Counted from the stretch's first letter, positions 813 to 60,041 are shown. The stretch is 64,000 nucleotides of DNA from Eledone cirrhosa (GCA_964016885.1 OZ024740.1:330336001-330400000), one strand, 5' to 3'. Made by a program: numbers and translations. The notes: a model not told the origin generated them from the sequence alone.

Positions 813-1010
813 GGGCGGTGGATTGGCAGTATCGGTAGAGGGTCGGACGCCATGCTTTGACGTATAGAGTTACGACCCTTGTCATTCTGAGTTCAAATCC
901 CGCCGAGGTAAACTTTGCCTTTCATTCTTACGGGGTCGATAAAATAAAGTACCAGTAATGTACTGGTTAATTGTGGCCTTGTGCCAAAAGTAGAAACAAT
1001 TATTATTATT
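813..1010 (+). mobile_element. tRNA-derived SINE with Meta-like central domain
   Basis: A-box-like TGGCAGTATCGG, B-box GTTCAAATCC, central GCCTTTCATTCTTACGGGGTCGATAAAATAAAGTACCAG. Flanked by (TTA)n on both sides. Homologous copies at 3601-3703 and 44075-44262. Confidence 0.85.
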
Positions 1011-1919
1011 AATATTTTTTTTATTTTTATATAGTTCTTTATCCTGAAAAACTATACTGAAATGTATTCTACTTAAAAGAACGCAGTTTCTTTTGTATAT
1101 AGTAGATTATATATTATTAAATTGATCCTTCATTGTGCAGGACAGTACTTAATGATTTGATGAATTATGTTAGCAATTTCAAAAGGATGACGTCACTGCT
1201 TTAGGCTGAAAATATTCTACTCTTCTTTCTTGATGTGGTTTCTATTTAGTGAATAGCAAAGCAGCAGTTATAACTGTGTTTGAGCATGACAAAGAGGCAA
1301 AGGCATCGCCGTGAGTAATTGGCAGCAACACCAGCTGTAAAAAGCATCCCATCTCACGCGGCTCCTTCCTCAAATGGTATGCTGCCATTCCAATTGTTCC
1401 GCCTAGTAATGTAATTTATCATATTTTCAATTATTTTCTTATATTTTATTTCATATTAATTCAATTTAGAATCAGAAGTTGCAATCAGGAGATGCGAATG
1501 TTTGATGTCCTCTAGAAAAAATATAGGTGTTTCCTTTTCATGAAACATTTATATAGCCTGATCTGTGAAAATTAATCAAATTTTTGAAATTCAGAAGTAA
1601 ATTCAATTCCTGGGATATTATTGAGAAACATATTTGCATCGCGATAAAGCATTTTGAAGGGAATTGCAATAAATACTTGAAATAATTCGTGGCACATTGA
1701 AATAAATTCATAGAGGTATAAATAGAAATCTTATATAAATCATAACCGAATCGATTTTGATTTTAGAATCCTGGTCGGGTTTGGCGCTCAATATTAAAAG
1801 AACCAAAGGAAGCTAATAATAAGCAATGCCATCTGAAAGAATATTTTTCAGACAATCATGTAAAAAAACCTTGCAATCATGAACATCAACACAATCATTC
1901 TCATCCTAATCTCCGTTAT

Positions 1920-2011
<92 letters not shown>

Positions 2012-2035
2012 ATGTGTGTGTGTGCATGTGTGTAC
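1920..2035. repeat. compound (CA)n(TA)n(TG)n microsatellite
   Basis: Direct reading. Confidence 0.95.
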
Positions 2036-3529
2036 ATATATATATTTATTTATTTATTTATATGCATATACTGACAGAAAGTAAAAAAGACGAATAACTT
2101 TCCCAAAATATACAAGATTTATTGCGCATCAACATTAATTGCGAACTTCGAAGACGCAAAACATAATTCAATGCGTTGGAAGCATAAATATAAAGAGATG
2201 CAGCAAATAAAAGAGAAATAAAACAAGGAAATTGTGCAGAAGATGCGCATAAAATAAATAAAATTCTGAAAATAAAATATGTATTTGTGCATCAAGATGA
2301 GAATTCTAACCTTTCACGTCAGGCCACTAAAATGAATCTACGTTTGCTCTTTTAGCAATGGACGCAGAGTAACGTAGCAACTAAGTCAAACCAGTCAGTA
2401 CGCCTACAATATTTACTATACAATGAAGGAAGGTAAAGTTCAAGGGAAATAGATTTATTTCCAAGCTAGCGATAATAACATCATCATTAACATAATATTT
2501 TTATGATACCTGTCGAAATCAGTAATAAAATAAGCCACAAAAAATATCCAGACGCAAATATCGGGAAATTCTATAGATTTTGATTGATATAAAATGAAAT
2601 GTATATTTTGTTCAAAACAAAATGTAAAATATAATTACACACTGCCATATAAAATCCTTTATAAAATCAATGACATGAGAGCAAAGAAAATTACTGACAA
2701 CAATGTGAGCAAAAGAAAACTTCAGTACTTGTTCCGTAGATTATTTCTCCACCCCGAAAAGAGTTGACCAATCGGTTTATATATATATATAAGTTGATGT
2801 ATGGAAGCCTCGACAATGCGTAATAGACGAAGAAAATATGTTGAAGCAAGATGGTTTGTGTACATTATTTATTCATCTGATATTTCGAGATAAATCTCTT
2901 TTTCGGATGGAAATAGAAAGGGACTAGTCTGGGAATTGCGAAACGCGAAAGGTCATGAAAATATATGAGGGAGGAGGGAGGTATGAATATATATCTATCC
3001 CTCTCTAATTATATTAGAGGTTTTGCGGGGTCAATAGTGCACAGATTTATTTCCTTTTAAATCTACTTATATATATATACCCACGCGCAGGCACAAATGT
3101 ACATGCATACATGTGTGTACATATAAGGACGCACACAAATACGCATATATGCATACATATACCCATAAAATCACATACATACACATAAACACGTTCTCAC
3201 AGATAAATAAACTGAACATGTAATGACTTTTATATATGCAGCACCAACCGACACCTATACATCAGAATTAAATATCACCTCAATACAAATGTTTCCGCAT
3301 TAAAAAAAACACTTGGAAAAAATGTAAAACCAGAGACAACAATATTGTGGTCACGGTAGAAGCCAGACAGAAATGTATGCAATTTAAGAATAAAAAAACG
3401 TGTTAATAATAGCAAAAACACATTCGCAGATTGATAATAGACTAGAATTAAGCACGCAATACTTAACAATTTTACTAGTACCTGATATATGTTATATCTT
3501 CTTATTCGATTTCAAGTAAACCACTAACG

Positions 3530-3600
3530 TGCCTGATTATTCTCTATATGCCGGTCCTTGTGACCAATAAATTTATTATTATTATTATTATTACTATTAT
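3530..3600 (+). mobile_element. 3' tail remnant of a Tx1-like LINE
   Basis: CTATATGCCGGTCCTTGTGACCAATAAA+(TTA)n matches the 3' end of copy C (CTATATGTCGGCCCTTGTGGCCAATAAA near 29078-29104). Confidence 0.6.
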
Positions 3601-3703
3601 GACTTTGCCTTTCATCCTTACGGGGTCGATAAAATAAAGTACCAGTAATACACTGGATAATTGCTGGCCTTGTGCCTAAAGTAGAAACAATTATTATTAT
3701 TAT
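3601..3703 (+). mobile_element. 5'-truncated copy of the Meta-like SINE
   Basis: Near-identical to 913-1010 and bounded by (TTA)n. Confidence 0.85.
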
Positions 3704-6670
3704 TCATTGAGTCTCAGTCATTGATGTTAGTTAACTGGAAAGTTTGTTGAAATGAATATCAAGCCACTACCTGCAGCGTCAGATATTCAGGACGTATCGG
3801 AGAGTGCTTGCTGTTCCCAGCAAGCATGCCTTTTGAAAAGTTCCAAGAAGCGGGGCTGCGCCAGTTTTCTTTAACCATCTCTGGAAACTTTTTGAGATAG
3901 TACCTAGTGCGCCTATGACAATCGGGACCAGTTTGATTTCATGGCAGTTCCAAATCATTTTTACCTCTCACTTTAAGTACTGGTATCGGTTAATGTTCTC
4001 CCTCTCCTTCTCTTGCACTCTCGTGTCGAATGGGCAGGCCACAACCACAATCAGGCACGATTCTTTTTCCTTGTCCAAAACCACCAGGTCAGGTCTATTG
4101 TGTTCCAGATTCCTGTCCGTCTGTATCCTAAAATACCACAGCACCTTCACCTGATCGTTTTCTATCACCGACTCTGGCTTATGCTCATACCACTTCTCAG
4201 AATGTGGTAAATTGTTTACTTTGCACAGGTGCCAGTGGACCACCCTGCCCATCACATCATGTCTCCAGCCCTTATAGTGAGTCTGGGCTAGGTGTTTACA
4301 CTCGGATACAATGTGAACCACAGTCTCCTCCCTCTCTCCACAGATCCTGCACAGTGGGCTAGCCTCCTCCTTGTAAATATGGTGTTTCAGCCACTTCGTT
4401 TTGAGGGCCTGCTCCTGCGCAGCCATTAGCATTCCTTCTGTAGCCTTTTTAAGGTCTCCTCTTCTCAACCAGTTCCATGTCTGTGAATCTCTGAATTCCG
4501 TTTTCTCAAAGAAGGTACTATGAAGGGATTTTTTATGAAGGTTGCTCTTTCTCCTCGTTGTTATTTCCTCCTTGGACATCCCATGGTCTATTGTCCTCTC
4601 CTTCAGTACAATTCTGAGCATTGGCTCCTTACTATCGGTGACGTATTTGTGTAGGTTGTTTTTCTCCATCTGAACACAGTCCTCTATGCTGATAAGACCT
4701 CTTCCACCTTCAGATCTCCTTAAGTAGAGTCTATCGACATCACTCCTCTGGTGGAATATCTTGTAGATAGTCAATAGCTTCCTAGTCTTCCTATCCATTT
4801 CTTTTTGTTCAGCAACATTCCATCTCAGAATTCCCGCATGTCAAATGCCTTTTCGTAGTCTATCCATCCCATGGCAAGACCAGTGTGTATCCTCTTGCAA
4901 TTCCTCATTACCATCTTATCAATAAGTAACTGGTTCTTTGTACCACGTGACTTCTTTCGGCATCCTTTCTGTTCGTCCGGTAACAAGTTGTTTGTGTGGA
5001 GGTGATGGTAGATTTGCTCAGACACAATGCTTATCAACAGTTTCCACATTACGGACAGACATGTGATAGGTCTATAGTTGTTTACATCATCACCCTTGAT
5101 TCCGTCTTTCATTACCAGAACTGTGGTGCCTATTGTCAACCACTCTGGTACCTCACCTGACATCAACCAGTCATTGAACATGGTTGTCAGTTTCGAGTGT
5201 AGGGATGTTACATTTTTAATCCAATACCCCTGCACACCATCTGGGCCTGGTGATTTCCAGTTGGTTAGTTTTTTGGCCTGCCCCTTAAGAGTTTCAACTG
5301 TGATACTCAAATCAGTTTGTTGGTGTGCCTGTTCACTAATCTCCTTTTGTACTGTCTCAATCGACGCTGCCTTGTCATTATGTTTAACATCCTGCTCCCA
5401 TATTCCTCTCCAGAATGTCTTAGTTTGTTCCGCCTCAGGGATCAAGTCGTTGCCTCTTTCTTTCCCTTCAAGCTGTCCAAACAACATCTTCTGGTTGTTG
5501 TCAAACATGCGGTTCTGTCTATACTGACTCACTCTGCTCTCGTATCGCCTAATTTTTGCACTCTTTGCTACAATGCGTTGCTTCAGTTCCTCTATGATAA
5601 TATTAAGACTTTTCCTCCTAGTTTTGTACTTTACTCCCAGTCTATTTTAGTGTCTATGTTTTTTTAGTGTCCCATTCAGTAGACTCTCAAGCTTTACAAT
5701 GTCATTTCTCATTTCCCTGATTTGACCACTCAGTCGTTTCCGCCACCAAGGCTCTGATCTTTCTTGTTTGTTGTTTCCTCTTGCTTTTATGCCAAGTAAT
5801 TTCCTCACCGTATTTGCTGTTGCTTTGAGGATATTGTTGCTATGGTGAAGGCTCGTCGGTATGGCTCGAAGGTATGGGATGACTTTGTTTACCTTAGCTG
5901 TTGTTTCTTTTAACTTTTTCCTGTCTACAAATCTTAGGTTCATAGGTTTCCCACTATCATTGTTCATTTCATCTACCACTAAGTTTAGGATATCAACCAA
6001 CTCTTGTCCTAGCCCGTCAGCATTCATCTCCTCAATGGCCGTATCTTTGTTCCAGGTATTATTTATTTCAGCATACAGATCATTGTCTGCTTCGGATGGT
6101 TCCTCCGTTCTCTCAACCTCTTCACCTTCATTTCCCACTGGCTCATTTGCCTGGCATACTCCACTCTCCATTTCCAACCTAAATCTCTCTGCTCAGTCCC
6201 TCCAGTTCCAGCTCGCTTATCCACACGTTTGTTCTTATTACCCGAGCTTGCCCGGCCAAATTTTGTTCATCTAATTTAAATAGACCAATCTCGTTCCAGA
6301 TGTTATGCATCCGTTTCCTATAGCCTTTTTCCTTCGGGTTACTTTTCAGGTAACATTGCATAACAGTTCTATTCAATTCTTTCGTCCAGTTGGTTCTGGC
6401 CCCTTTCCTTCTTCTTCCTCCGTCACCAGCAGTATTTGGTTGACAGCCAGGTCCCTGCTGCTGAGCCAGGGAGCACCTGCTGGGTGAGCGTCTGTCACAT
6501 GAAATTCCAGTCTCCACTTCACCGTTATTCGAACTGTTTAGGTTCGACATTGAAACACTCTTATCGAGGATTGGTGAATGTTTGTAGTGTTGGTGAAATT
6601 GCTGTTATTTGGCTGTTCTATATAGTGTAGACAGAGGGGTTTTCTTCCATTTATAACCATTTACCTTTTT
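3704..6670 (-). mobile_element. R4/Dong-clade RLE non-LTR retrotransposon, copy 1 (internally deleted)
   Basis: Fragments encode N-terminal RT motifs (KSPGPDG, NYRPITCL, WIDYEKAFD), CCHC finger (CRICGEREETVVHIVSEC) and RLE motif (HNRPDLV...ACPFD). The 3' end abuts (TAA)n on its own strand. Lacks about 650 bp of RT core and about 1.1 kb of leader present in copy 3. Confidence 0.9.
3779..6550 (-). pseudogene. disrupted RT-CCHC-RLE ORF of Dong copy 1
   Basis: ORF pieces 6179-6550, 5647-6177, 4825-5532 and 3968-4798 are collinear with copy 3, with frameshifts and a deletion at 4837-4838. Confidence 0.88.
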
Positions 6671-6674
6671 GAAT

Positions 6675-9600
6675 TCAAAACGCCACAGTAGACGTATTTT
6701 TCGCCCCCCCCCCCCCCCCCCCAGGAAACAAAGTCTCACTCTTTGGAAATCCTGAACAGTGAGGTGATAGTCTTGGTGCCCTCCTACTGCGGGCTGAAAA
6801 TTGTGAGGGTCAAAGTGACCCAGGTCCCACCCGACGTGCCCTTACCTTGGCTGGCCGCGTCTGTCCTTCCTGGAATCGAGAACATGACGACCATGCTGCA
6901 AGTAGAAAAATAGGGAGGGAGAACTGGTCAGGGATAGGCATGCAAATGCTTATATAAACTGACCAGGAATGTATCGACGCTATCCCCGATATCATAGACA
7001 TCGAGGAAGGCCTCTATATCCCTATAAGTGTAGAAGCAAGACGGCCAAAATCTTATCTCTGTGGGTCGAAGGGTCACCTCAGGGCCTTTAACCCGCAGAA
7101 AACAGCGAAGAAGAAGGCCCCTCTCCTTCCAGTACCTGGTCCGCTGCTACCAAGAGCAAGGCAGGCAACAAACGCAGGAGCCCCTTCCACGGTGAGTAGG
7201 AGGGCAACGACCGTAGAACCTGTACCAAGGCCACGGGCAACTAAAGCAACATCATCAGTGGCGGCAACACCAGTAGCTACATTTGAAGTAGCTACACCAG
7301 CAACAAAATTGCCAAAGAGGGCTCCACTACCACCACCAACAGCCGTGGAGCACATACCCCTCCCAGACCCCACAGAATCCGACATGGAGTTTTAGGCGGG
7401 AGGGAAGTGGCAACCGGTTTGCCACAAAAATAAAGAAAAACAAAAAAACCTTAGATTCACCCTCCAAAAGCGAAGGCATACAAAGAGGGGCAAAGGCAGC
7501 AAGGAAGCTTGCAGTAACACCACCACCATCACCACCACAAGCACCACTGACAACAACAACCACACCACCACCAGCATCACCAAAAACACCAACAGCGCAA
7601 ACACAAAAAGACACACACACCAAACAGCAACAAGAAGAAAACAGCAACAAAATCACCCCTCCCCCCAAAAGGTACATAGCCATAAACATGCAAAAAAAGA
7701 ACTCATACAATATACAAAGCAGCACACAGACATCACAAAAAAAAAACTACTACACGCCACCAACCCCAAGAACTCTCCCGACAAACATAAGCATAATCGA
7801 AATCTCAATAGAACAGTACAAATCTTTAAACCAAAAATTCCCCAACGTAGTTGGAGACTCCAGAGGTTCGGTTACCAAGAGGATATACACTGACATTCTC
7901 TTGGAAACACCCATGACCAGCGAAAGGGACCGTTCTACTGTCCCTTCACCATACGATCAAGGTAAGTGACCCTTTCTCACTTGCCCCGTTTCTCGTCCAA
8001 CATGGCCGTACTCAGAATAGGCAGTATAAATTTACGTGGCCTGGGGTCATCTTGGAAGCAGAGTCACCTGCTCAACGACCTCAGGTCACTAAACATAGAT
8101 GTGGTGGCCATCAGTGAAACCAGAATCTCCGAAGCACACGCCTTCGCACCGATCTTCGGCGGCTACGATGAATACGCATATCCCAGCCGTCCAGGTTCGG
8201 GGGGAGGGGTTGCCGTCTTTTTTCGGAGAGGCTTGGATCTCGCGATACGGGCCATCTTCCTAGACCCAGAAGCTAAGTCGGTGGTGCTGGACGTGACCGG
8301 CAGCGAAGACAATGCTTTCAGGCTACTAGCCGTCTACGCCCCAACAGGGGCAGGACGGCCAGATTTATTCAGACGTCTAGAGACCTTTCTTGGAACGTGC
8401 CGCACTTTAGTGTTAGTGGGCGACTGGAACGGTATCTTGGCTGCACACTGGGATTGTGTAGGGCTAGTGGATAGGGGAGGAGGGTCAAGAGCCTCACCAA
8501 CCTGCTCAGATGTTTTGAACTGTCTGACAGGTATCGACTGGATCACCTGAATGTGCCAATGCGGACAAGGACAAACTGCATCGGGTCATCCAGATTGTAT
8601 CTCGATAGGGTATTCTGCAGAGAAATAGATAAGGCTAGTATAAGTCGTCAACAATTTAAAATAGTCGACTACACAGATCACAAATTTGTGATCTGTGAGA
8701 TCGACATAGACAGACTTCATAGACAAGGGCCTGGTTACTGGAAGCTGAACGCGTCTTTCTCGGCGCGCAAAGCCTACAGACACCGGATTAGCGTATTAAT
8801 TAAGCGGTCGTTGACGGGAGCGGTCGTCAACAACAGGTGGTGGTTCACCCTGAAAAGGGCAATTAAAGTAGAGTCAATTAGGTTTAGCAAAGGAGTAGTG
8901 ATAGAGGAAAATAGAGTAGAGGGAGAGGTAGTCAGAAAGCTAGAAGAGGCGTTTAGGACAGGCATCGCAACCGACGTGCTTGCGGCGAGATTGGCACTCG
9001 ACCAATTCTTCAACGCAAAACACGAAGGCTGCGTTGTCAGAGCTAGAGCGCGTGCTCTGAAACACAACGGGACAAAAGCAGTCCAATGGGCCCGGGTGGC
9101 AGAGGCCCGACGTGGCAAATAAGCCACAATTCGGTCTTTGTCTGACCAAAACGGGTGCGTGATGCTCGAACCCGAGCGGATGTGTGAAGCTTTTCAGCAG
9201 CACTTTGCTGAACTGTTCGGGAACGGCGACGGCCCGGATCGGGGCATGGACTTCAGTGCATACCTCGACGGACTGCCTCGGCTCTCGACGACCGCAGCAC
9301 GGTGTTGCAAAAAGCCAATAACAGCCGGTGAAATACGGGAAGCGATGACTAACTGCACAAGGGGTAAATCGCCAGGTTTGGATGGTCTGCCCTACGAGCT
9401 TTATGCATTTATGCGAGACTTGGTCGGTGATCTCTTGGCAGACGTCTACTGCAACTGGCAGCAAAACGGGAGCATTCCCAGTTTTGTGAGCCGGGGAGCA
9501 GTGGCGCTGCTGAGAAAAGACCCGAACAAGGGGAATGTTATCGATAATTTCAGGCCCATAACCCTGCTAAACGAAGAGTTCAAGATTTTGGCCAAGGTGT

Positions 9601-11740
9601 TAGCAACGAGGTTGGCGCTTGTCGTCAAGTGTCTGGTGGGAGAGGCGCAGACATGCGCCATTCCGGACAGATCCATACACGACAACCTCCACCTCATGCG
9701 ATACATCATAGAGAGGGTGGTTAAGGAACCTGGCACGGGTGGCGCCATGATCAATTTGGATCAATCCAAAGCATTCGATAGGGTCGAACATCGGTACCTG
9801 GCGGCGGTCCTCGAGGCAGCCGGTTTCGGGCCCGTTTTAAGGGGTTGGATCGCAGCAACGTACAGCGACATCTGCTCAGTTGTGAGGGTGAACGGTCACC
9901 TGTCGTAGCCGTTCCACATCATGCGGTCAGTCCCCCAGGTTTGTCCCCTCTCGTCCCTCTTGTACGTATTGGCTCTTGAGCCGTTACTGCACAAACTGGG
10001 GGCGATGAGGGGCGTCCCACGCGAACTAGAATGTGGGAAATCCGAGTCGACTTACGCTCACGACGTCACCGTGGTGGTGTCGATAACCAGACACGTCCAG
10101 ATGCTCGGCACCGTTCTCAAGGAATACGAAGCGGTGACAGGAGCAAAGATAAAACAGGAAAAGTCGGTGGCCTTGCAGTTCGGCACCTGGAGAGGCAAGT
10201 CCATGCCGTCCGACAGCGTCGTGGGGCGTTGGACAGACGGACTGATTAAATTGCTCGGAGTCTGGTTAGGACGGGACCTCCAGATGGAGAAAAACTGGAA
10301 CGGGGTGACGAGCAGGTTGGCCTCCCTCACCCAGAAATGGGCCGAGAGAAAGCTGTCCCTGAAAGGCCTGGCGGAGGTGGCGAATGCGTACATCACATCC
10401 GTCATCTGCTACCGCCTCGCCGTCGTCCCTTGCTCCAGCCTAACTCACACCAAAATGGAGCGCCTCCTCTTCCGCTTTTTGTGGAAGGGACGCGCTCCCA
10501 TGGTCAGACGATCCATCTGCTGTCAACACCCGTTGCGTGGAGGACTGGGCATGCCATGGCTGATGATGTGCAAACATGCGCAGAGGCTGCGACATCTCTG
10601 GCGCTTCCTTGATGGTGAACAGGTGTGGTCGCCGTTCGCGAGGCACATTTTCCCACATTTCGTCTCCTTGACAGAGCTGCAGTCCTGAGTTAGACAAAGA
10701 CCGAGGGATAGCGCTTGGAAACTGGAATGTTTCCAGGCGCTGACTGCCCTCTGCCAGTTGGGCACCAGTATCGGTGGAACATCCACCTCGGCCTTCTATA
10801 GAGGACTAGTGGAGGGTAAGAGCGACGACACTACCGGAGAGATCCTGGGCATCGAAGAAGATCAGCTGTTTGCTCTCTTCCGGAGAACTTTCAGCTCGGG
10901 GCTTATGGATAACTTCCAAAAATTCCTGGCCTGGCAGTGCTACCGGGGAGCGCTGCCGGTTCGAGATAAGCTCTACAGGCATGGAAGTGCCGTCACCGAG
11001 CCTGTCCGAGATGCGCTGATAGCGACGAAACCGTCATGCACGCACTCGTTCAGTGCCTGAGCATTGCTGACTTGTGGAGCTATGTCGAACAGTTGCTGTC
11101 GCGTGTAGGACTGATCCGGTTGTCGACTGAGTCCATCGTGCAGATGGTCTCGGCGTCTTCTTTCGAGGAGGAAGGGCAGGTATTTTCATCTGCCTGGTGG
11201 CCATGGCGAAAGAGATTGTGTGGTGGACAAGGGTTAAAGACAGACACTTTCCTCTTCGGCGAATCCCTAATTAACTTTTTCAAGTTTCACTTGAAGAGGA
11301 AAATAAGGGCGGAGAGGCAAGTGCTGCCTTCTAGCAAGTTTGTTGAAAGGTGGGTGAATGTAGTGAGAATGGTTCGAGTGAACGGGACGGGACCACTCTA
11401 AATATACGTCTGTAGTTTGAGAAATGGAAACATTGAGAGAGAGCACTTGCCCTGGTGGTCAGGGTGGCCGTGTTCCTTTGTGTGGTTTTCGCCACGAATA
11501 ACCCTCGGAGGTTTCCCACTAATGGGGAATGTTTCATTGTTTCAATTTTCATTTTTATTGTTTATATATATGTTACTATGTCCTTTTTTTTTCTATTCTT
11601 ATATAAATAATAAAAATATTTACACGCACAAAATCCACATCGTACCGTCCTGTGGCGTCTTGTGCCGTCTGTAATGGTTTTCTTGATCTCAGCCCTTGTG
11701 GCCAATAAAGAAATCTATATTATTATTATTATTATTATTT
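6675..11740 (+). mobile_element. Tx1/L1-clade LINE, copy A (5'-truncated within ORF1)
   Basis: ORF1 remnant to 7969, ORF2 APE-RT pieces, and 3' UTR ending GCCCTTGTGGCCAATAAAGAAATC+(TTA)n. Confidence 0.92.
8002..11415 (+). pseudogene. disrupted ORF2 (APE endonuclease + RT + C-terminal Cys-rich domain), Tx1 copy A
   Basis: SINLRGL, ISET, VYAP, GDWN, LDR, TDH, GYWKLN, KSPGLDGLPYE, NFRPITLLN, DQSKAFDRV, degenerate YAHD. Multiple stops and frameshifts. Confidence 0.92.
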
Positions 11741-13055
11741 TTCTTTGAGTTTAGTCATTGATGTTAGTTAACTGGAAAGTTTGTTGAAAAGAATATCAAG
11801 CGACTACCTGCAGCCTCAGATATTCAGGACGTATCGGAGCGTTCTTGCTGTTCCCAGCAAGCATGCCTTTTGAAGCGTTCCAAAAAACGTGGCTGGGCCA
11901 ATTTTCTTTAAACATCCCTGGAAACGTTTTGAGATAGTACCTAGTGCGCCTATAACAATCGGGACCACTTTGACTTCATGGTAGTTCCAAATCCTTTTTA
12001 CCTCCCACATTAAATCCTGGTATCGGTTAATTTTCTACCTCTCCTTCTCTTGCACTCTCGTGTCGAATGGGCAGGCCACATCCACAATCAGGCACGATCT
12101 TTTTTCTTTGTCCAAAACCACCAGGTCAAGTCTATTGGGTTCCAGTCTCTTGTCCCTCTGTATCCTAAAATCCCACAGCACCTTCACCTGATCGTTTTCT
12201 ATCACCGACTCTGGCTTATGCTCATACCACTTCTCAGAATGTGGTAAATTGTTTACTTTACGTAGGTAACAGTGGATCACCCTGCCCATCACATCTTGTC
12301 TCCAGCCCTTATAGTGAGTCTGGGCTAGGTGTTTACACTCGGATACAATGTGAGCCACAGTCTCCTCTCTCTGTCCACAGATCCTGCACAGTGGGCTAGC
12401 CTCCGCCTTGTAAATATTGTGTTTCAACAACTTCGTTTTGAGGTCCTGCTCTTGCGCAGTCATTAGCATTCCTTCTGTAGCCTTTTTGAGTCTCCTCTTT
12501 TCAACCAGTTCCATGTCTGTGGATCTCTGAATTCAGTTTTCTCAAAGAAGGTACTATGAAGGGATTTTTCATGAAGGCTGCTCTTTCTCCTTGTTTAAAA
12601 TGTCCTCCTTTGACATCCCCTGGTCCTCTCCTTCAGTACGATTCTGAGCAATTGCTCCTTACTATCAGTCACGTATTTGTGTAGGCTGTTTTTCCCCATC
12701 TGAACACAGTCCTCTATGCTGATAAGACTTCTTCCAGCTTCAGATCTCCTTAAGTAGAGTCTATCGACATCACGCCTCTTGTGGAATATGTTGTAGATAG
12801 TCAGTAGCTGCCTAGTCTTCATATCCATTTCCTTTTGTTCAGCATCATTCCACTCAGAATTTCCGCACTGTACCTAATAATAGACACAGCTCGGGTAATT
12901 ACTGCACTTATGGCATTCCTACTGTTCAGATGTGACCTTAATACGCTCCTTACTCTCCGAATGCATTCAGATCTTATCAATTCCTTCATTTTTTTTGTTC
13001 TTGATGCCATCAGCCTCCAGAACACCCAAATACTTGTATCCTTGTTCAGTGTCAA
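11741..13055 (-). mobile_element. R4/Dong-clade element, copy 2 (5'-truncated)
   Basis: Same 3' end as copies 1 and 3, with CCHC and RLE fragments (12035-12514, 11816-12010). Truncated just upstream of YKYLG and bounded by (TTA)n on both sides. Confidence 0.9.
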
Positions 13056-13075
13056 TTATTATTATTATTATTATT

Positions 13076-17957: not shown

Positions 17958-18015
<58 letters not shown>

Positions 18016-21000
18016 GATGACCTACGTAGGAAATCGTATTCTCGTGAGCTCCGCAAAATTTTGTAGTTTTCAGTTGTTTCAAATTGCCATTTATGGAAAC
18101 TTTTTGTTAAGTGTTTATAAGTTCACAGATATTGCTTTCTGAAAAGGACACTCAAAAAGATTGGCGCCTTGAGCCCCAAATTTAAACTTTTATAATTATC
18201 AAACAAAAAAATTCTTTGAAAAAATCATCGACGACTCACCGTCACACCAAGCTGACAGCCTTCCTCATAAACTAAAACCTCACACCAACACCACCATTGT
18301 AATTATTACTACGTTTGCCAACACTAAAAATATAAGCAGTAGCAATAATTTAAATTTGTCTCGTGCAGACATTCATTTCCCGCCATTACCAATAACTGCA
18401 GGTGTTAAAGCCGCCACCCCCACCACCACAACAGCGACAACAGAAACAAAAGGAAAAAAATAAATGATTATCTCGTGACATCGAAATGAATTCACACAGA
18501 ATCGACTTTTCAACACCGAACACCACTGACGCCACCACCACCAGAACTGAAACTAAAAATAACAATAACAAAAATAACAATAACAACAACAGCATCAACA
18601 ACAGTGAGAATAACAACAAAAACATCAACACCACAATTGTGTCTTTGACAAAGCAGCTAAGAAATGTGAAACAATCGAGGTAACTAAGGAGGAATTAAAT
18701 GAAGCCAAGAGAATGGTAAAGAAAGATGGGTACATGGTCAGCCTCCCCCACACACACACCTAATAAAACGGGGCATCGGCGCCTTTGCACCGTGTCTTAT
18801 CGGACGATTAACACAAAATCGTGCCGAGTTGAACGGGCATCCGATCCCAAATCCAAAAATCTTTCGGACATGTGTGGGCCAAAAAACTCACATCGGATGT
18901 AGGCAGAAATATGAAACCGTGGACGTATTCTTTAGAACGCCACAGGAGGCCAGAGAGCACTCCATGGCCCCATTAAGAAGCGACGACTCACACTCGTCCC
19001 AAGCTATTGTGGCCAGAGACTCGTGAAGATCAGGGTCACGCACGTTTCACGGCCATCTAAATTCCCGGGATAATGGCTGCCTTCCTCGCCGGCATCGAGG
19101 CCAACACCAAAATAATTGAAATATCAAAAGAAAAGCAGGAGAACTGATCCGGATCTGGGATGGAGCTCCTGATCCAAGCGGACCAAAAAAGCATTGAGGA
19201 AATCCCAGAGGTAATAGACTACACTGACGGAAGCCCCCTCACCGTAATCGTCGAGGGTAGAAGGCCTAGGTGTGTCGTTTGTGGTGAAGGAACCCACCTA
19301 AAGGATTTGTGCTCTCAGGCTAAAAAGTTGAAGCCACCTCTCTTACCCACCCCAGTGACTCACCATCAACACCACCAGCAGCAGAAATTGCAGCAACAAC
19401 TGTAGCAGCAACAACAGAAGCAACTGTAGCAACAAACCCCAGCAACAGTAGCAAAGCCAACACCACCACCACCACCAACCGCGCCAGAACTAGCACCAGC
19501 GTCTCGACCAACCACCACGCCACAACCAAAACCAACGCCTGTGGAGGATTTTCCCCTCCCCGACCTATCGCAACTGGAGACAGATTGTGACGACGAGGAG
19601 TGGGAAACTGTATCAGGAAAAAAGTAAGAAAGAAAAAATCCCCTTCCTTCCCCCTCCAAAAACAAAATACAGAGGGAAACAAATAAACTATCAAACAAAA
19701 AACTTAGGACAGCTATGCCACCATCCACACTAGCATCACCAACCCCATCACCACAAACACCAACACCATCACCACCATTAACCCCAACACCACCATCACC
19801 AACACCACAAAAGTCACCAAAAACGAAACAGAAACAAACCCACAACAAACGCAAACAAAACAAAACAACCAAAACGATACACACTACACAGGATTAAATT
19901 TGAACAACAACCAATTATTACACTATATCCAAAACAATACCAGCATCACAGAAAAATACTACACAACACCCCAAGAGTTCACACCATCCCCACACATACA
20001 AATCATTCGCATCACACAGAAAACGTACACGACACTAAAAAAAAAATTCCCCAAAGACATCGGAGACTTCCGACAATCATTCTCCAGGAGGATTTATAAG
20101 GACATCCTTCCGGAGGAGGCCACAAGCAGTGGAAAGGATGGAGAAACCATCCTTCCTCTAAGAGAAGTAAGGTAATTGGTATTTCCATCTTTTCCACTCC
20201 TTTTCAACATGACCTCACTCAGAATAGGCAGCATAAATGCGCGTGGCTTGGGGTCGTCATGGAAGCAGGGCCACCTGCTCAACGACCTCAGGTCACTAAA
20301 CATAGATATAGTGGCCATCAGCGAGACCAGAATCTCCGAAGCACGGGCCTTCGCACCGATCTTCGACGCCTGAGATGTGTACGCATCTCCCAGCCGTCCT
20401 GGATCGAGCGAAGGAGTTGCTGTGCTTTTTCGGAAAGGTTTGGATCTCGCCATACAGGCCATCTTCCTGGACCCAGAAGGTAAGTTGGTGGTGCTGGACG
20501 TGACCAGCGGAGACGGGCAAGCTTTCAGGCTAGTCGCCGTATATGCCCCCACAGTAGCAGGGCGGCCTGATTTCTTCCGGCGTCTGAAGACCTTTCTTGG
20601 AACGTTCCGCACTTTAGTGTTAGTGGGTGACTGGGAGAGGATCTTAGATGCACGCTAGGACTGTGTGGGTTTAGCGGATATGGGAGGAGTGTGCAAGAGC
20701 CTCACCAACCTGCTCAGACGTTTTGAACTGTCTGACAGGTACCGATTGGATTTCCCGAATGTGCCAATGTGGACTTGGACAAATCGCATAAGTTCATCCA
20801 GATCATATCTAGATAGAGTATTTTGTAGGGAAATAGATAGGTCTAGCATAGGCTGTCCACAATTCAAGATAGTCAGCTACACGGACCACAAATTCGTGAT
20901 CTGTGTGCTTGACTTAGATAGGCTTCATAGACGAGGACCCGGCTACTGGAAGCTAAACGCGTCCTTACCAGCATGCAAGGACTACAGAGACCGGATTGGC

Positions 21001-23568
21001 GAATTAGTTAAGCAGGCGTTAACGGGCGCCATCGTCAACAACAAGTGGTGGTTTGCTCTGAAAAGAGCGATTAGAATAGAGTCCATTAGGTTTAGTAAGG
21101 CTTTAGATATAGAGAAAAATAGAACAGAGCGAGAACTAGTTAGACAATTAGACGAGGCGCTTAGCAAATAAATCGCGACCGACGTACTTGCGGCGAAATT
21201 GGCCCTTGACCAATTCTTCAATGCAAACCACGAAGGCTACGTTGTCAGAGCTATGGTGCGTGCTCTCAGACACGAGGGGACGAAAGCCGTTCAATGGGCC
21301 CGAGTGGCGGAGGCGCGTCGTGGCAACAAAGCCTCGACCCGGTCTTTGGTGGACTAAGACGGGCGCATGCTACTCGATCCCGGGCAAATGTGTGAAGCTT
21401 TTCAGCGACACTTCGCTCAGCTGTTCGGGGGCAGTGGCGGGCCGGATCGAGGGATGGCTTTTGGTGTCTACCTCGGCGAAGTGACGCGGCTCTCGGCCAC
21501 TGATGCGGAGTGTTGCGAAAAGCCGATAACAACCGCTGAAGTACGGGAGGCAATGACTGGCTGCACAAGGGGTAAATCACCTGATTTGGATCGTCTGCCC
21601 TATGAACTTTACGTACTGATGCCAGATTTGTTCGGAGGCCTCTTGGTGGACGTCTACTGCAACTGGCAACAGAACGGGATAATTCCCAGCTCTGTGAGCC
21701 GAGGAGCGGTGTCGCTGCTGAGAAAGGATCCGAACAAGGGGGATAACATAGATAATTTCTGGCCCATAACCCTGCTAAACACAGAGTCCAAGATTTTGGT
21801 CAAGGTGCTAGCAAAGAGGTTGTCGCTTGTCGTTGGTAGTCTGGTGGGAGAGGGGCAGACATGCGTCATTCCAGACAGACTCATCCACGACATCCTCCAC
21901 CTCATGCGATACATCGTGGAGAGAGTAGCTAGGGAACCTGGCACGGGTGGGCCTTTGATCAATTTAGATCAGTCGAAAGCTTTCGATAGGGTCGACCATC
22001 GTTACCTAGCGGTAGTCCTGAGGGCGGCTGGCTTTGGGCCCGTCTTCAGAGGCCAGATCGCTGCCATGCACAGCGACACTGCTCTGTGGTGAGAGTGAAC
22101 GGTCACCTTTTGGCACCGTTCAACATCATGCGTTCGGTCCGCCAAGGATGTCCCCTCTCGTCCCTCTTGTACTTATTGACTCTCAAGCCTTAACGCACAA
22201 ACTAGAGACGTTGAGAGGGGTCCCGCGCGAACTAGGATGGGGAAGATCCTTGTCAGCATATGCGGACGATGTTACCGTAGTGGTGTCGAACGCTAAACAC
22301 ATCGAGGCTATCGGCACTACACTAAGAGAATAAGAAGCGTTGACAGGAGCAATAATCAACCAGGAAAAGTCAGTGGGCCTGCATCTCGGCACCTGGAGAG
22401 GCAGGTCCATGCCGTCCAACAGCGTCGTCGGGCGCTGGATGGATGGACTGGTTAAATTGCTAGGGGTCTGGTTCGGTCCGGACCTCCAGACGGACAAAAA
22501 CTGGGACGAGGTGACGAGCAGGGTGGCTTCTCTCACCCAGAAATGGGCCGAGAGGAAGCTATCCCTGAAAGGTCGAGCGGAGGTGGCGAATGCGTACATC
22601 GCATCCGTCATCTACTACCGCCTGACCGTCGTACCTTGTCCTAAGCCCCGCCTGACTGGAAACTCCACCTTGGCGTTCTATAGAGGATTAGTGGAGGGGA
22701 TAGCGACGACGTCCTTGGGGAAACTCTAGGCGTGGACGAAAATCAACTAGCCAATCTCTTCGCAAGAACTTTCGGGCCGGGCCTATGGTCAACTTCCAGA
22801 AATCCCTGGCCTGGCAGTGCTACCGAGGAGTTTTGCCAGTTCGGGATAAACTCTACCGGCTTGGACGTGCCATCAGCCGAGCATGTCCGAGATGCGCGCA
22901 GGGCGACGAAACCGTCCTACACGCACTCGTCCGGCGTCCGAGCATTGCTGACTTGTGGGTTTATGTCGAACACCTGCTGCCGCGTGTAGAACGGATCCAG
23001 CTGTCAACTGAGTCCATCGTGAGGATTGCCCCGCCCTCTTCCTTTAGCCGGGAAGGGCAGGCTGTTTTTATCTGTCTGGTGGCCATGGCGAAAGAGATAG
23101 TAAGGTGGACACGTTTGAAAGGGCTGAAGACAACCACTTACCTCTTCGGTGATGCCCTGATTAACTTTTTCAAATTTCATTTGAAAAGGAAAATCAGGGT
23201 AGAGAGGGAAGTGCTATCTTCCCAGCATTTTGTTGAAAGATGGGTGAGAGAAGCAAGTATGGCCCGAATGAATGGGCCTTCTCTGAGTATGTGTCTGTAA
23301 ATTAAAGGTGGAAAACTGGGAGAGGGCACTTGCCATGGTGGTCAGGGTCACTGTGGCTTTTTAATGGGCTTTCTCCACGGATGTTCCTCGGAAGTCTCCT
23401 CCCTATTGGGGAATTTTTCATTGTTATTATTTTGTTACATCCTCTGTTTTTGTTTTTTACACGCAGAAATGCCCATTTGTACCGTCCTGTGTGTCCTGTA
23501 CTGTCCTTAATGTTCTCTTTATGTAAACCCTTGTGGTTAATAAAGAAAGCATTATTATTATTATTATT
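18016..23568 (+). mobile_element. Tx1/L1-clade LINE, copy B (near full length, decayed)
   Basis: Starts right after (TTA)n. Asn-rich ORF1 start, CCHC knuckle CVVCGEGTHLKDLC, ORF2 20209-23300 with YADD near 22259, about 330 bp deletion near 22655, tail AACCCTTGTGGTTAATAAAGAAAGC+(ATT)n. Confidence 0.92.
20209..23300 (+). pseudogene. disrupted ORF2 (APE-RT-zinc domain), Tx1 copy B
   Basis: ORF pieces 20176-20373, 20377-20658, 20665-21171, 21367-22092, 22340-22729 and 22785-23300 (CPRC..ETVLHAL). Confidence 0.9.
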
Positions 23569-26500
23569 GGTCTAATCGCACGTATTTTGCTCGCTCCCAG
23601 TAATAGGCTTTTGCCTGTTAAAATTATTTGTGGTTAAATATTTCTTGTTGTGTAAGGGACATAAGCCCTTAGACTTTGCCCTGTGAAGGGATAAGTATAA
23701 TACTTGGGCCTTTTGGCCCAAATATTTGAACTTTTTTTACATGTTAAAAAATGTACGGAGAAAAAAAACATGGCTGAGCCATGACCCCAGCGATATGTCT
23801 GCTGTCGTGCGACAACGACGTAGAAGTTGAGAGGGGCGCTACAGCGAAATTAACACAAATTGATAACACAAACACCACCACAAACAATGTAAACAAAGAC
23901 ACAAAGGATACTAATGAGAACTCTAATTTTGGAAAAAATGACAGTAACAACAACAACGAAAATACAGATAACAAAAAACAATAACAAATGCAACAACAAT
24001 ATCAACACCACTAACATGAAAACAAATAGCGACAACACCAACAGCAACAATACCAACTGCACCGAGAACAACACCCACAACGAAAACAATAAGAACACTT
24101 TCACTGCGGCAGCAGCAAAAAAGGGGCCATGCTTCAACATGGACCTCTCAAACAAATATGAAAAGTTAACCCATGCATGGAAGCTCATCAAGCAAGAGCA
24201 AACCTGGACCAACTTAACTGTCCCGGTAGAAGATATTGAGGCATTGGAGCGCAGAACGGTGCATTATAGATGCATCTCCGCACAAACCAAAGGGGCAGCT
24301 TTAATCCCACAAGAAGATGTCGAAGTCGCGCTGAGGTGCATCAGAGATGACACCCAGTACATAGAGAGTACGGCACCATTTCAGGGTTGTTCAAGTCAGA
24401 AGCCCTCGCTATGAAACACGCTATGATTCCTTGCGAAATCAGCAAAGGCATAATGTACCCCTCCCACATGGGAAAAAGAACGGCCCGTCTCCGCATTCCC
24501 AGAATCCCACCAGGACTTGACATGTGGTGGCTTCTGGGATGTGTGATTGTGGAAGGGACGGATACAGTCCCTATAGAAGTGACCAGTACGGCCAGAGAGG
24601 ACTGGTCCGGGGTTGACCTGGAGATCCTTCTCCAGATCAGGCCCGAGAATGTGAAGACAATCCCGGACCACATCCGCCATTCTCATTATGACGGAAGGCA
24701 AAAGGCCGCAGTGTTTTGTTTGTGAGGAAAAAACCCATTTGCGAGCCTTCTGCCTTCAACTACTGAAAGAGGCAAGGGGTCGAAAGGCTCCACTGCTGCC
24801 GGTGCCGGGGCGAGGACCACAACCAACACCAGCACCGGCAAAACCACCAACAACACCAATAGAAAGACCACCACCAAATTTGACCACCCAGGGGGGAAAC
24901 GAGGAAAGCTGTCAAATTCCCCCTCCCCCCCAAAATACACACAGCATTAAAACCATAACATACATACAGACACAGATCCCTCATCTACCAGTAATGAAGA
25001 TGAGGGAAAACCAAAATGCACCAAAATACAAAAAAGGAAACACAAAAAGAAAAAAAAAACCCAACAAAGCACAAAATCACCCCCAATAAAAAACGCAAAC
25101 CCCACCCACGCAAACATGTCTCCAATAACACCAACATCAACACCACCATCACCATCACCAGAATCCCCCAAACGCAAACTACCCAATCAGACGCAAGAAC
25201 AAATATACACACAAACATCTGAAACCACAGACACCGCACTCACAACAAACACAGACACAACCGAAACAACACCACCAAAACCATCACCACCACAGCCACG
25301 AAAACAAATAAAATCATACCAACAAAACATACAAAACTTCGTGCTCGTCAGGAGGACCAACAAGGAACTGATGGCCCTCGTAGCACGAAGTGAAAATATA
25401 CAAAAAGAGGGGGAAATTTTTAAATCGAGCACATTTCGCGTGCCGGAAGATTTGGTTCTGGTGCGAATGTCGATCGAATTATACAAAGAAATACGAGACA
25501 GCTCTCCTCGGGACGTGGGAACCCCGAACGTAAAACCAACTACAAGACTTTTAAAGGGGTTCCCAAAAGAAACCCCACCAACTATGGAGGTCGAAAAACC
25601 CGACCTTCACAAGAGCCCGGAAGGTAAATAAACCTTCCTCTCTCTCTTTTTAACCTGCCCACATGGCCGTATTAAGAGTAGGATGTTTAAATGTTCGAGG
25701 CCTGGGATCGTCCTGGAAGCAGGTCACCTGCTCAATGATTTCAGGTCTCTAGAAATGGATGTAATTGCCGTCAGCGAGACCAGGATTTCCGACACGCGCG
25801 CACTAACCCCATTTTCGACGACTATCAGATATTTGGATCTGTTAGCCGGCCGGGAATGGGAGGCAGGTTGGCAGTGCCGTTTAGGAAAGGCCTGGATCTC
25901 GAGGTAAGGTCGATCTCCCGGGACACGGACGGGAAGTTGGTGGTCCTGGACGTGAACAATAACGAAGGTGGTGCCTTTAGACTGGTGGCCGCCTATGCTC
26001 CTACAGGGTAGGACAGCCGGACTTCTTTAGACGCCTGGAAGCCTTTCTCGGCACGTCTCGCCTTTTACTGTTAGCGGGGGACTGAAACGGCATCTTAGAC
26101 GCACGCTGGGACTGTGTGGGAGTATCCGATAGGAGCGGGGTGTGCAAAAGCCTCAAGAACCTGATCAGCCAGTTCCAACTGTCTGACAGGTACCGACTAG
26201 ATTTCCCTAATGTGCCAGTGTGGACCTGGGCTAACCGCATAGGGTCATCTAGATCGTATATAGACATGATATTCATTAGGAAAATAGACAGAAATAGTGT
26301 ATACTGTCCACGTTTTGAAACAGTCGCCTATTTAGATCACATGTTTGTGATCTGTATGGTCGACCTAGATAAGACGCGTAGGTTAGGACCTGGTTACTGG
26401 AAGCTTAACATGTCATTTCCGGCACGTAAAGCTTAAAGGGACCAGGTCAACAATTTAGTTAAGAAAAAGTTGACAGGGGGAGTCGTCAACAATAGATGGT

Positions 26501-29135
26501 GGGGGGCTCTCAAAAGAGAGATTAGAGTAATGTCGATAGAGTTTAGCAAAGAAGTAGCGCTGGAGAAAAATAGAAAGGAGGGGGAGTTGGTAGATAAGTT
26601 AGACGAGGCTATTGGTAGTGGCATTGCAACTGACGTGCTAGCGGCGAGAATGGCATTAGACCATTCTTCAATGCGAAACGCGAAGGTTGCATTGTCAGCG
26701 CCAAGGCGCGTGCTCTGAGTAACAAGGCAACCAAAGCTGTTCGATGGGCCCGCGTGGCAGAGGCGCAGCATGGTAATAAAACTACGATTCGGTCCTTGAC
26801 GGACTGAGACGGACACGAGCTGAACGATTCCAAGCGGATGTGTGAGGCCTTTCGCCAACATTTTGCTCGGTTTGTTCGGGGGAAGTGGCGGGTCAGAGAT
26901 GGTGGCGGACTTCAGTCCCTACCTCGATGGCTGTCCGCAACTCTCGACGGCTGACGCTGGGCGCTGCGAAAGGCCAATTACTACAGCCGAGATGCAGGAT
27001 GCGCTTGTCGGCTGCATGAGGCGCAAGTCACCCGGTTTGGATGGTCTGCCCTACGAGCTTTACGTAAATATGCCAGACTTGTTCTCCAATCTCCTCGAAG
27101 CCCTCTACTGCAACGGGCAGCAAAACGGGAGTATTCCCAGTTCTGTGAGCCGGGGCGTAGTGACGCTGATAAGGAAAGACGAGAACAAGAGGGACACATT
27201 AAACAATTTCAGGCCCATAACTCTGCTCAACACAGAGTTTAAGATTTTGGCCGGGGTGTTAGCGACGAGGTGTTCCAACCAGGTCCATACACGACAACCT
27301 CCACCTAATGCGATATATCATAAAGAGGGTAGGGTGTGAACCTAGCTTCGGTGGGGCTCTGATTAATTTAGATCAATCGAAAGCATTCGATAGGGTCGAC
27401 CATCGATACCTGGAGGCTGTCCTCAAGGCGGCTGACCTCGGCCCTGTCTTCAGAAGCTGGATCGCTGCAATGCACGGCGGCACCTGCTCGATGTTCAAAA
27501 TTAATTGCCACCTCAAGGAACCGTTTCAGGTCTCCCGATCGGTCCGTCAAGGGTGCCCTCTCTACTCCCTTCTGTACGTATTGACTCTCGAGTCTTTACT
27601 GCGGAAGCTGGAGCTGTTGCAGGGCATCCCGCTCGAACCGGGAGGCGGAAAGGCTGTGTCGGCTTATGCGGACGACATCACCGTGATGGTGTCGGACACC
27701 TCAGAAATCGAGGTGGTCGGCAACTTATTGGAGAAATATGAAAGTTTGACGGGAGCAAAATTTAACCCGGAAAAGTCGGTGGGCTTGCAACTCGGCACCT
27801 GGAGAGCAAGTCCATGCCGTCCAACAGCGTCGTTATGCGCTGGACGGACGGACCGGTAAAGTTGCTAGGGGTTTGGTTCGGGCCAGACCTCCAGGTGTAT
27901 AAGAATTGGGACGAGGTCTCGGGCAGGGTAGCCAGTCTCATCCAGAAATGGGCTTTGATGAAGCTATCACTGAAAGGTCGGGCTGAGGTGGCGAACGCGT
28001 ACATCGCGTCCGTCATCTACTACCGTCTGACCGTCGTCCCTTGCCCCCGTTCGCGCCTCGCCGTCTTGGAGCGGCTCCGCTACAAATTATGTGGAGGGGT
28101 CAGGTTCCGCTGGTGAGGCGGTCCATCTGCTGCCAGCTCCCTCTATGTGGAGGGCTTGGCGTGCCGTGGCTAACGATGCCCAAGCACGCGCTTAGGCTGG
28201 GTCAAGAAGAGACCGAGACTCGGTGACTGGCATCTGGAATGTTGCCAGGCACTTACTGCCCTCTACTAGGCGGGCAATGCGGTCAGTGGAACTTCCACTC
28301 TCGAGTTCTATAGAGGACTAATGGTGGGAAGTGCGAGGACGCACTCGGAGAGGCTCTGGGAGTCAACGAAGTCGAACTAACCAGTCTGTACCAGAGGAAT
28401 TTCGAGTCCGGGACGATGGACAATTTCCAAAAGTCCCTCGCTTGGCAGTGCTACCAGGGGGCACTGCCGGTTCGAGATAAACTCTAGAGGCACGGAAGTG
28501 CAGTCAGACGGACCTGCCCGAGATGCGTGCAGAGCGACGAAACAGTTCTGCACGCACTCGTCCAGAGTCCGTGCTTTACTGACTTGTCGCGTGTAGAACG
28601 GATCCGGCTATCGGCCGAGTCCATAGTGAAGTCCATAGAGTAGCGAAATAGGTAATATGATGGACGAGTTTGAAAGGAATGAAGACAGACACTTTCCTCT
28701 GCGGCCAATCCCTCATCAACTTTTTCAAGTTTCATTTGGAAAGGAAGGTAAGGGTGGAGAGAGAAGTGCTGCCCCCCAGTACATTTGCTGAAAGGTGGGT
28801 GAATGTGGCGAGAATGGCCCGTGTGAGTGGGCCTACTCTGGTCATGCGGCTGTAGGTAGGTAAATTTGAGGAGGAGAGGGGGTGCTCTTCGAGGGTGCTC
28901 TCGAAGCGTCGGGTCGTTCAGGATTGGTGGGGTACATGAGCGAACCCTGGGTGGTCATCCCCCCTATTGGGTAATTTTTTTTTGTTGTAATTTTATTGTT
29001 ATTTTGTTATTGTGATTCATATTGTTTACTCGATTTTTCTGTAAAACCTCACTGTCCCAGTCTTTTGTATTGTCCCCTATATGTCGGCCCTTGTGGCCAA
29101 TAAATGAAATCATTATTATTATTATTATTATTATT
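23569..29135 (+). mobile_element. Tx1/L1-clade LINE, copy C (near full length, decayed)
   Basis: Directly follows the (TTA)n tail of copy B. ORF1 pieces with CFVCEEKTHLRAFC, ORF2 25663-28855 with RQGCPL and YADD, tail GGCCCTTGTGGCCAATAAATGAAATC+(ATT)n. Confidence 0.92.
25663..28855 (+). pseudogene. disrupted ORF2 (APE-RT), Tx1 copy C
   Basis: GYWKLN, KSPGLDGLPYE, NFRPITLLN, DQSKAFDRV, RQGCPL, SAYADD, KLLGVWF. Confidence 0.9.
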
Positions 29136-30228: not shown

Positions 30229-30267
30229 AATACAAAGTGTCCGCTCTAACATAAGAGCTAATTCACC
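30228..30267 (-). pseudogene. 5' half of a tRNA-Ala pseudogene
   Basis: CGCTCTAACATAAGAGCTAATTCACC matches the array copies, followed by the long array spacer. Confidence 0.6.
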
Positions 30268-36965: not shown

Positions 36966-36970
<5 letters not shown>

Positions 36971-38609: not shown

Positions 38610-38650
<41 letters not shown>

Positions 38651-44074: not shown

Positions 44075-44262
44075 AATAATTGTTTCTACTTTAGGCACAC
44101 GGCCAGCAATTACTCAATGCATTACTGGTACTTTATTTTATCGACTCCGTAAGGATGAAAGGCAAAGTCTACCTCGGCGGGATTTGAACTCAGATCGTAA
44201 AGGGACGTAACTATGCTGGAAAGCATGGCGTCCGACCCTCTACCGATACTGCCAATCCAGCG
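44075..44262 (-). mobile_element. Meta-like tRNA SINE, full length
   Basis: Reverse complement of 813-1010. Candidate TSD GTAAATAAT at 44072-44080 and 44265-44273. Confidence 0.85.
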
Positions 44263-59829: not shown

Positions 59830-60020
59830 ATAATAAAAATAATAATAATGATTTCTTTATTGGCCACAAGGGCTGACATTAAGAAAAACATAACAGACAG
59901 CACAGGACGGTATGATGTGGGTTTTGTACGTGTAAAGATTTTTATTATTTATATAAGAAAAGAAAAAGAGAAAAGACATAGACACATATATATATGTAAA
60001 CAATAAAAATGAAAATTGAA
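59830..60020 (-). mobile_element. Tx1-clade 3' UTR-only copy F
   Basis: Reverse complement matches 11540-11720 and is bounded by (TAA)n. Confidence 0.88.
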
Positions 60021-60041
60021 AATAATAATAATAATAATAAA

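Follow-up and report, generated by a model that had tools for sequence, protein, structure and literature searches.

An abundant SINE of Eledone cirrhosa with a 3' end resembling that of Tx1-clade LINEs

Retroelements of the window

The sharing of tails between short and long interspersed elements (SINEs and LINEs) is well established. In a stretch of 64,000 nt from the 3.0-Gb assembly of Eledone cirrhosa (OZ024740.1:330336001-330400000; hereafter the window), the last 25-30 nt of a SINE match the 3' end of a lineage of Tx1-clade LINEs, the enzyme of which likely copies the SINE. Judging from sequence, we propose with moderate confidence that it does so by recognizing a 3-bp hairpin with a pentaloop, located 16 nt from the RNA end. 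The first 30 kb of the window are a stack of retroelements set in trinucleotide arrays, in which the Tx1-type LINEs A, B and C occupy the plus strand and Dong/R4-like LINEs the minus strand, with SINEs as a third component. The SINE and Tx1-type copies are the following.

813..1000, plus strand: SINE, short form, full length, with a tRNA-like head containing A/B-box-like motifs, a central body and a Tx1-like tail; hairpin 974-986
3469..3574, plus strand: 5'-truncated Tx1-type 3' untranslated region (UTR) of ~100 nt; hairpin 3553-3565; adjoins an unrelated Penelope-like fragment (3230-3468)
3602..3692, plus strand: SINE, 5'-truncated; hairpin 3665-3677, outer position unpaired (U.U)
6680..11720, plus strand: Tx1-type LINE, family A, without its 5' end; coding region with APE, reverse transcriptase (RT) and zf-RVT; hairpin 11691-11703
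18016..23550, plus strand: Tx1-type LINE, family B, internally deleted near 22650; hairpin 23526-23538; trinucleotide arrays on its flanks
23570..29111, plus strand: Tx1-type LINE, family C, head-to-tail behind family B; hairpin 29086-29098; spacer 17 nt
44075..44262, minus strand: third SINE copy, with one loop substitution; outer position unpaired
59850..60021, minus strand: 5'-truncated end of family A (copy F); hairpin 59862-59874

All six hairpin motifs named in the original prediction were recovered at, or at most one base from, the places it had assigned. The hairpin of copy F lies at 59862-59874 of the minus strand. The SINE motif that had been placed at 3665-3676 is present, although its true end is 3677 and its outer pair is U.U. 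The copy with the hairpin at 3553 contains no open reading frame (ORF) and is preceded by a Penelope-like GIY-YIG fragment, a label given by resemblance of its translations (similar ORFs match GIY-YIG), and for this reason the copy was rejected as a separate LINE family. The full-length SINE at 813..1000 is flanked by a target duplication of 21 bp with 1 mismatch.

An intact natural copy of the Tx1-type LINE has frames of 713 and 1204 codons, with the Pfam domains Exo_endo_phos, RVT_1 and zf-RVT. The product of its ORF2 scores 298 bits (29% over 974 aa; residues 60-900) with the 149 kDa protein of Xenopus TX1 and 182 bits with the ORF2p of human L1, the two scores coming from different databases; a protein of Argonauta hians is 73% identical. 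Because of the higher score with TX1, the LINEs are considered Tx1-like and appear to belong with the Tx1 clade of the L1 group, which agrees with the original assignment. In a tree built from 31 of 128 ORF2 ends, a trinucleotide clade, which includes families A, B and C, is separated with full support from a tetranucleotide clade. Identity in ORF2 is 70-80% between families and 90-95% within them. The full-length copies in which the 5' end is resolved, 14 in number, all lie in trinucleotide arrays. The sister clade has a tetranucleotide repeat as target, its ORF2 is 70-74% identical to that of the trinucleotide clade, and it retains both the hairpin and the poly(A) signal; a pattern whose matches come mostly from this clade was found 6,096 times. 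The two clades represent a target switch inside one lineage. Full-length copies of family B share one 3' end and have two different 5' ends, which suggests exchange of the 5' UTR/ORF1 region.

The SINE occurs in two forms, an old long one and a younger short one in which ~29 nt of the long form are missing. With pairwise identities of 85% (short form) and 77%, the sampled copies seem somewhat older than those of the Tx1 families sampled. Neither ARAGORN nor Rfam made a call on its head. The original prediction described the SINE as Meta-like. Compared by eye with the region common to BivaMeta-SINE1 and BivaMD-SINE1 (PMC4824008, supplement), from which the edges of the 66-bp Meta domain were inferred, its body is unlike that domain, and the label is not supported. 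The 3' ends of CORE consensus sequences have, also by eye, only a faint likeness to it, and it may be similar to the 5' part of Deu/Inv. The SINE is probably one of the annotated octopus SINE families. Just upstream of the hairpin shared with the LINEs, the short form contains a stronger hairpin of 7 bp (e.g., 951-967). At seven loci insertions of only ~36 nt, consisting of the hairpin and the end, were observed, several of them with target duplications.

The terminal hairpin

By itself the 7-mer of the hairpin is no commoner in the window than chance predicts (10 matches versus 6.05 expected), but its placement exceeds chance. Genome-wide, a pattern in which nothing but the poly(A) signal and the repeat was fixed returned at least 12,956 ends of Tx1-type LINEs versus 56 for the reversed control, and the same loop was present in 93 of the first 100 listed; a further pattern added 2,082 ends of family C. 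For the SINE, a pattern that left the hairpin free gave at least 148,691 matches versus 0 for its control. Among the first 100 SINE ends listed, 82 have the same loop and 43 have U.U as the outer pair. When contigs of four runs were compared with a family B end, those of two runs spanned it with an unchanged hairpin, and those of the other two reached only its final ~40 nt and pieces of coding sequence; this carries no information about transcription.

The structure was analysed in 14 chosen representatives (12 Tx1, 2 SINE) aligned with MAFFT, the rows of which are related to one another. All 14 have C-G as the closing pair. As the middle pair, 11 have C-G, both SINEs G-C and the 3553 copy U-A; as the third pair, 12 have G-C and 2 have A-U. 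Pairing at the three inner positions is thus intact in 42 of 42 cells, and at two of these positions both partners change. Six of the 14 lack pairing at the outer position; there is an A.C mismatch at 11691-11703 and in copy F, which is the commonest form of family A (32 of 50 copies), and U.U at 3665. RNAalifold predicted only the three inner pairs, with a consensus energy of -3.2 kcal/mol. Since the outer pair is so often unpaired, the shared stem measures 3 bp, and not the four pairs claimed at the outset. The loop, which had been called invariant, is conserved rather than invariant, because recurring minor subfamilies of Tx1 alter its base 2 or base 3 (113 matches for base 3, with recurring types). 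Single-sequence folds contain the hairpin in 6 of the 8 ends of the window. A longer irregular stem over the poly(A) signal was predicted in families A and B (z = -4.1 for B); the presence of a long lower stem in every Tx1 family was rejected, because the consensus lacks it.

Co-variation of the stem, another element of the original prediction, is weaker than claimed. Two inner pairs do change on both sides across families, and the covariation score of 0.43 exceeds all 500 shuffles, which ignore relatedness, as well as all slid controls (at most 0.15). On the ORF2 tree the A-U change falls on the branch of family B, and the covariation therefore comes down to roughly two events, one on a single Tx1 branch and one a swap between SINE and LINE; SINE copies add none, and the example at 3553 is doubtful. 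Ten occurrences of the exact 3553 motif were found in the genome, eight of which are tails of the same LINE type. At the corresponding pair, 97 of the first 100 family C ends are unchanged, 2 have a single change and 1 a double change, while among LINE ends mutated at this pair 3 of 100 are compensated. Genome-wide, ~8 double changes of this type were seen in old copies versus ~1 expected under independence, an excess that unequal copy ages inflate. We consider it doubtful that the U-A pair represents compensation.

These counts bear on the possibility that there is no functional RNA structure, i.e., that a short self-complementary run was kept by descent and that what looks like compensation arose from a slip of one base or from double changes that occurred once or twice by chance. 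The events are few, the swap between SINE and LINE can be read as the loss of one base per arm, double changes at the 3553-type pair are rare, and few of the ends mutated at that pair are compensated. On the other hand, families that share only 70-80% identity in ORF2 retain all three inner pairs even as the remaining UTR diverges, the slid controls score far lower, and double-changed copies exceed the number expected, even though copy age contributes to this. An absence of functional structure seems to us very unlikely.

Comparison of the SINE tail with LINE ends

The tail of the SINE was compared with LINE ends by an end-anchored, ungapped match over the last 30 nt, each comparison including at most 25 SINE and 12 LINE copies. 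With four Tx1 groups, 13.3-17.5 of the 30 positions were identical, the null being 7.7-8.0 (standard deviation 2.4), and gapped scores were 3 to 16 versus about -11 for the null. The ends of CR1, RTE and two Dong-like elements gave 4.3-9.4 of 30. Among the LINE ends sampled Tx1 is thus the best match, CR1, RTE and Dong-like ends being near the null, and the refutation foreseen in the original prediction, a better fit to another LINE family, did not materialize. Both SINE ends align to the 12 Tx1 ends in MAFFT with zero gaps from the hairpin to the end; the similarity fades ~28 nt from the end. The spacer between loop and repeat is 16 nt in 102 of 110 loop-intact SINE copies, in long and short forms alike, and 16-17 nt in Tx1. 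The poly(A) signal has been lost from the SINE, whereas the hairpin, the spacer and the terminal A-rich motif have been kept.

The search for a partner covered ~2 Mb of the 3 Gb, 600 kb of it as an evenly spaced sample, so that rare or extinct LINE families may be missed. In the 600-kb sample, the best look-alikes that are not SINEs and end at a microsatellite were Tx1 ends. No LINE with the exact tail of the SINE was found in the sequence covered: 14 of 16 and 23 of 30 loci carry the SINE body, and the rest recur in no family. Dong/R4 was rejected as partner, as it lies on the opposite strand of the repeat and its tail does not match; RTE was rejected because it ends in another repeat and also lacks a tail match. 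At three loci, the 3' end of a Tx1 element is cut right after the hairpin and a SINE is fused directly to it, by template switching or by insertion with deletion.

Insertion signature

Target duplications of 10-20 bp (mode 18) flank 26 of 69 random SINE copies, versus 1 of 273 controls, and all of them start at most 2 nt from the element end. In a wider set they were found in 49 of 132 copies (control, 17 of 393). Because the duplications start at the element end, the repeat behind the SINE is mostly target DNA and not tail. Sixty of the 69 random copies are followed by at most 2 repeat units and none by 5 or more, and therefore the claim that the SINE inherited (TTA)n targeting is not supported in its strict sense; the SINE lands at short sites and not in (TTA)n arrays. 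Clean Tx1 duplications of 14, 14, 15, 18 and 19 bp start at the element end as they do in the SINE, and the SINE sits on the same strand relative to its target as Tx1. In register and size the SINE duplications thus appear to resemble those of Tx1, few of which are readable, but the choice of site is looser and the array lengths differ. In a minority of Tx1 ends (6 of the first 100 family C matches listed) and in three SINE ends, the element adjoins the trinucleotide repeat in its opposite strand orientation.

The similarity of the tails, the distance from loop to end and the duplications starting at the element end make Tx1 the best partner found for the SINE, as judged from these sequence characters. 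Another LINE, either a trinucleotide-ended CR1 or an unsampled or extinct family, might instead move it, in which case the likeness to Tx1 would be due to chance or to an older capture. One resident CR1 family has at least 4,359 exact 3' ends at the same repeat and on the same strand, has a terminal hairpin of its own and occupies dispersed sites like those of the SINE. Elements of the CR1 group and L2 are also the usual SINE partners in molluscs (PMC4824008, PMC11481361; here and below, published systems are described as they appear in the accessible portions of the papers cited). Moreover, the sample was a small part of the genome, and besides the LINE ends that were scored it contained an Ingi/I-like element and others. 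Against this, the end of the one CR1 family compared matches the SINE at only 4.3-4.6 of 30 positions, which is below the null, and duplications of at least 8 bp were found in only 4 of 33 CR1 copies, each after added repeat units, unlike the SINE. Dong-like elements and RTE differ in the strand and in the identity of the repeat, respectively. We regard movement by another LINE as quite unlikely, and with good confidence we take a Tx1-clade LINE to be the partner of the SINE, whatever the mode of recognition.

Proposed mechanism

The presence of the same hairpin at the same distance from the end makes it likely that the SINE borrows the Tx1 enzyme. A tRNA-derived SINE would have captured the 3' end of a trinucleotide-targeting Tx1 element, keeping the hairpin, the length of the spacer and the A-rich terminus. 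The poly(A) signal would have been dispensable, since a Pol III transcript has no need of one. The ORF2p might bind the hairpin, and its endonuclease might nick at a short site of the (TTA) type; reverse transcription would then be primed by pairing of the target with the first bases of the repeat that ends the RNA, and a second nick ~15-20 nt away would yield the duplication. In L2 LINEs the loop sets the specificity and the stem can be swapped (PMC4176376).

That the stem-loop is recognized in a strict manner is, we infer, a weaker step than the partnership with Tx1. The hairpin might not be the signal at all, being a captured relic or a part of the 3' processing of the LINE, and priming would then depend mainly on the match between the target and the final bases of the RNA. 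It sits directly before the poly(A) signal, over which the longer stem is predicted in families A and B, its stem is short, its loop tolerates changes, and the SINE is never found at the tetranucleotide target of Tx1 families having the same hairpin. However, the SINE dropped the poly(A) signal but kept the hairpin and spacer in both of its forms, its middle pair was swapped and not broken, and the longer stem is not conserved across families. A hairpin without a signalling role is in our opinion rather unlikely, and recognition of the hairpin by the Tx1 enzyme is the reading that we continue to favour.

Several observations nevertheless weigh against it. The stretch in common is only ~25-28 nt long with ~55-60% identity; both values are lower than those of bivalve SINE/LINE pairs, which share 35-61 bp at 72-95% identity (PMC11481361). 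No extant Tx1 family carrying the middle pair of the SINE was found in the sequence covered, and the covariation rests on about two independent events. Copies of the SINE showed no compensation (2 of 100 and 1 of 100, versus 3 and 3 for non-matching control changes), which is as expected for dead copies and yet adds no support. The 3-bp stem is marginal at -3.2 kcal/mol, and in 2 of the 3 SINE ends of the window the minimum-energy fold does not contain the hairpin. Short-form SINE copies, at 85% pairwise identity, are more diverged than the sampled Tx1 families (90-95%), both samples being biased to best matches. Detection of Tx1 duplications (7 of 126) is not clearly above the control (7 of 250); these are hard to read because most copies sit in long arrays. 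Tx1 copies are found in such arrays (80 of 202 with at least 8 units, in a sample partly selected on the repeat) and the SINE is not. Finally, the search for SINE ends joined to the tetranucleotide target of the sister clade gave 0 matches, although the hairpin is the same.

Other features of the window

The remaining LINEs of the first 30 kb are of the type that we take to be Dong/R4, a clade label assigned by motif.

3712..6584, minus strand: Dong/R4-like LINE with CCHC and restriction-like endonuclease motifs, in the same arrays as Tx1 and on the opposite strand
~11744-13057 and 13075-16538: further Dong/R4-like copies

The trinucleotide arrays (3575-29141, 59829-60060) are a common landing site, in which Tx1 elements are nested head-to-tail on one strand, Dong/R4-like elements lie on the other, and SINEs are also present. 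A second Dong/R4-like family is located at ~60750-63425 on the plus strand, with its end beside an (AAG)n array. Genes for tRNA and tRNA-like repeats are clustered at 30223-30680 and 36945-39994, where ARAGORN called a tRNA-Pro (37184-37256) and a tRNA-Ala (39460-39532). At three or four of the loci sampled, RTE-like ORFs have a PHD finger directly behind the RT domain.

Relation to known systems

A close precedent for a SINE moved by Tx1 is the pair SINEU and Tx1-Mar of crocodilians, in which mobilization of the SINE by Tx1-clade LINEs was inferred from common targets and ages (PMC4494074). SINEU has heads derived from small nuclear RNA (snRNA) and poly(A) tails (PMC4494074), whereas the present SINE has a tRNA-like head and is linked to its LINE by a shared structured 3' end. 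The main text of that paper nowhere uses the word "stem", and no shared 3' tail is reported in its accessible portions. The Tx1-clade LINEs Kibi and Koshi also insert into simple repeats, as here (PMC4494074), but they use other repeats in other hosts, and in the accessible text no SINE partner or 3' hairpin is reported for them. In Eledone, two sister clades use tri- and tetranucleotide repeats and have the same hairpin.

Stringent pairs within the L1 clade have been described in maize and sorghum (LINE1-1_ZM with ZmSINE2/3) and in Chlamydomonas (PMC3472496, PMC3747384). In these, as here, an L1-group LINE and a SINE share a 3' hairpin with a conserved loop and compensatory changes in the stem. 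They differ in being poly(A)-ended and in having longer, more stable hairpins (-11 to -18 kcal/mol), while the present elements are animal Tx1 with a 3-bp stem and microsatellite targets. A model for the mode of action is provided by ZfL2-1/ZfL2-2 and UnaL2/UnaSINE, where ORF2p reads the terminal stem-loop and a short repeat ends the RNA (PMC4176376); these belong to the L2 clade and are proven by experiment, whereas the present pair is known from sequence alone.

The octopus SINEs OK, OR1 and OR2 and the tRNA-Core and tRNA-Deu classes are, like the SINE described here, very abundant and tRNA-derived, and L1-Tx1, Dong-R4, CR1 and RTE are listed as recently active LINEs of O. vulgaris (PMC8967140, PMC13282606, PMC4758252). 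Surveys of octopus repeats thus list Tx1 as well as abundant tRNA-Core/Deu SINEs, and the portions available to us name no partner LINE (PMC13282606, PMC8967140). Partners reported for mollusc SINEs are CR1, CR1-Zenon, L2 and Nimb (PMC4824008, PMC11481361, PMC4758252). For an animal pair of Tx1 and SINE with a shared structured tail we found no report in the literature searched, PMC11203168 and PMC5804259 included; Repbase, the SINEBase supplement and the 1994 octopus SINE paper were outside this search and may hold the SINE or the link. SINEs mobilized by Tx1 and stringent L1s of plants have each been published already.

Significance

A tail-sharing partnership of this kind would be unusual for the Tx1 group in an animal. 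We suggest tentatively, as a possibility slightly short of even, that an animal LINE of the Tx1/L1 group with strict recognition of the RNA 3' end drives one of the most abundant SINEs of octopus, that the hairpin was kept while the target switched between tri- and tetranucleotide repeats, and that the SINE follows only the target with which its RNA end pairs. The natural variants of stem, loop and target, together with intact copies of ORF2, make the question testable. If this view is correct, the choice of RNA and the choice of site would be separable in a natural set of enzymes. Stringent recognition would be extended to metazoan elements of the L1 group, which bears on whether it is ancestral, and among animals, too, the relaxed poly(A) recognition seen in mammalian L1 would be derived. 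A likely engine would also have been named for a major part of the expansion of octopus genomes, given the copy number of at least 148,691.

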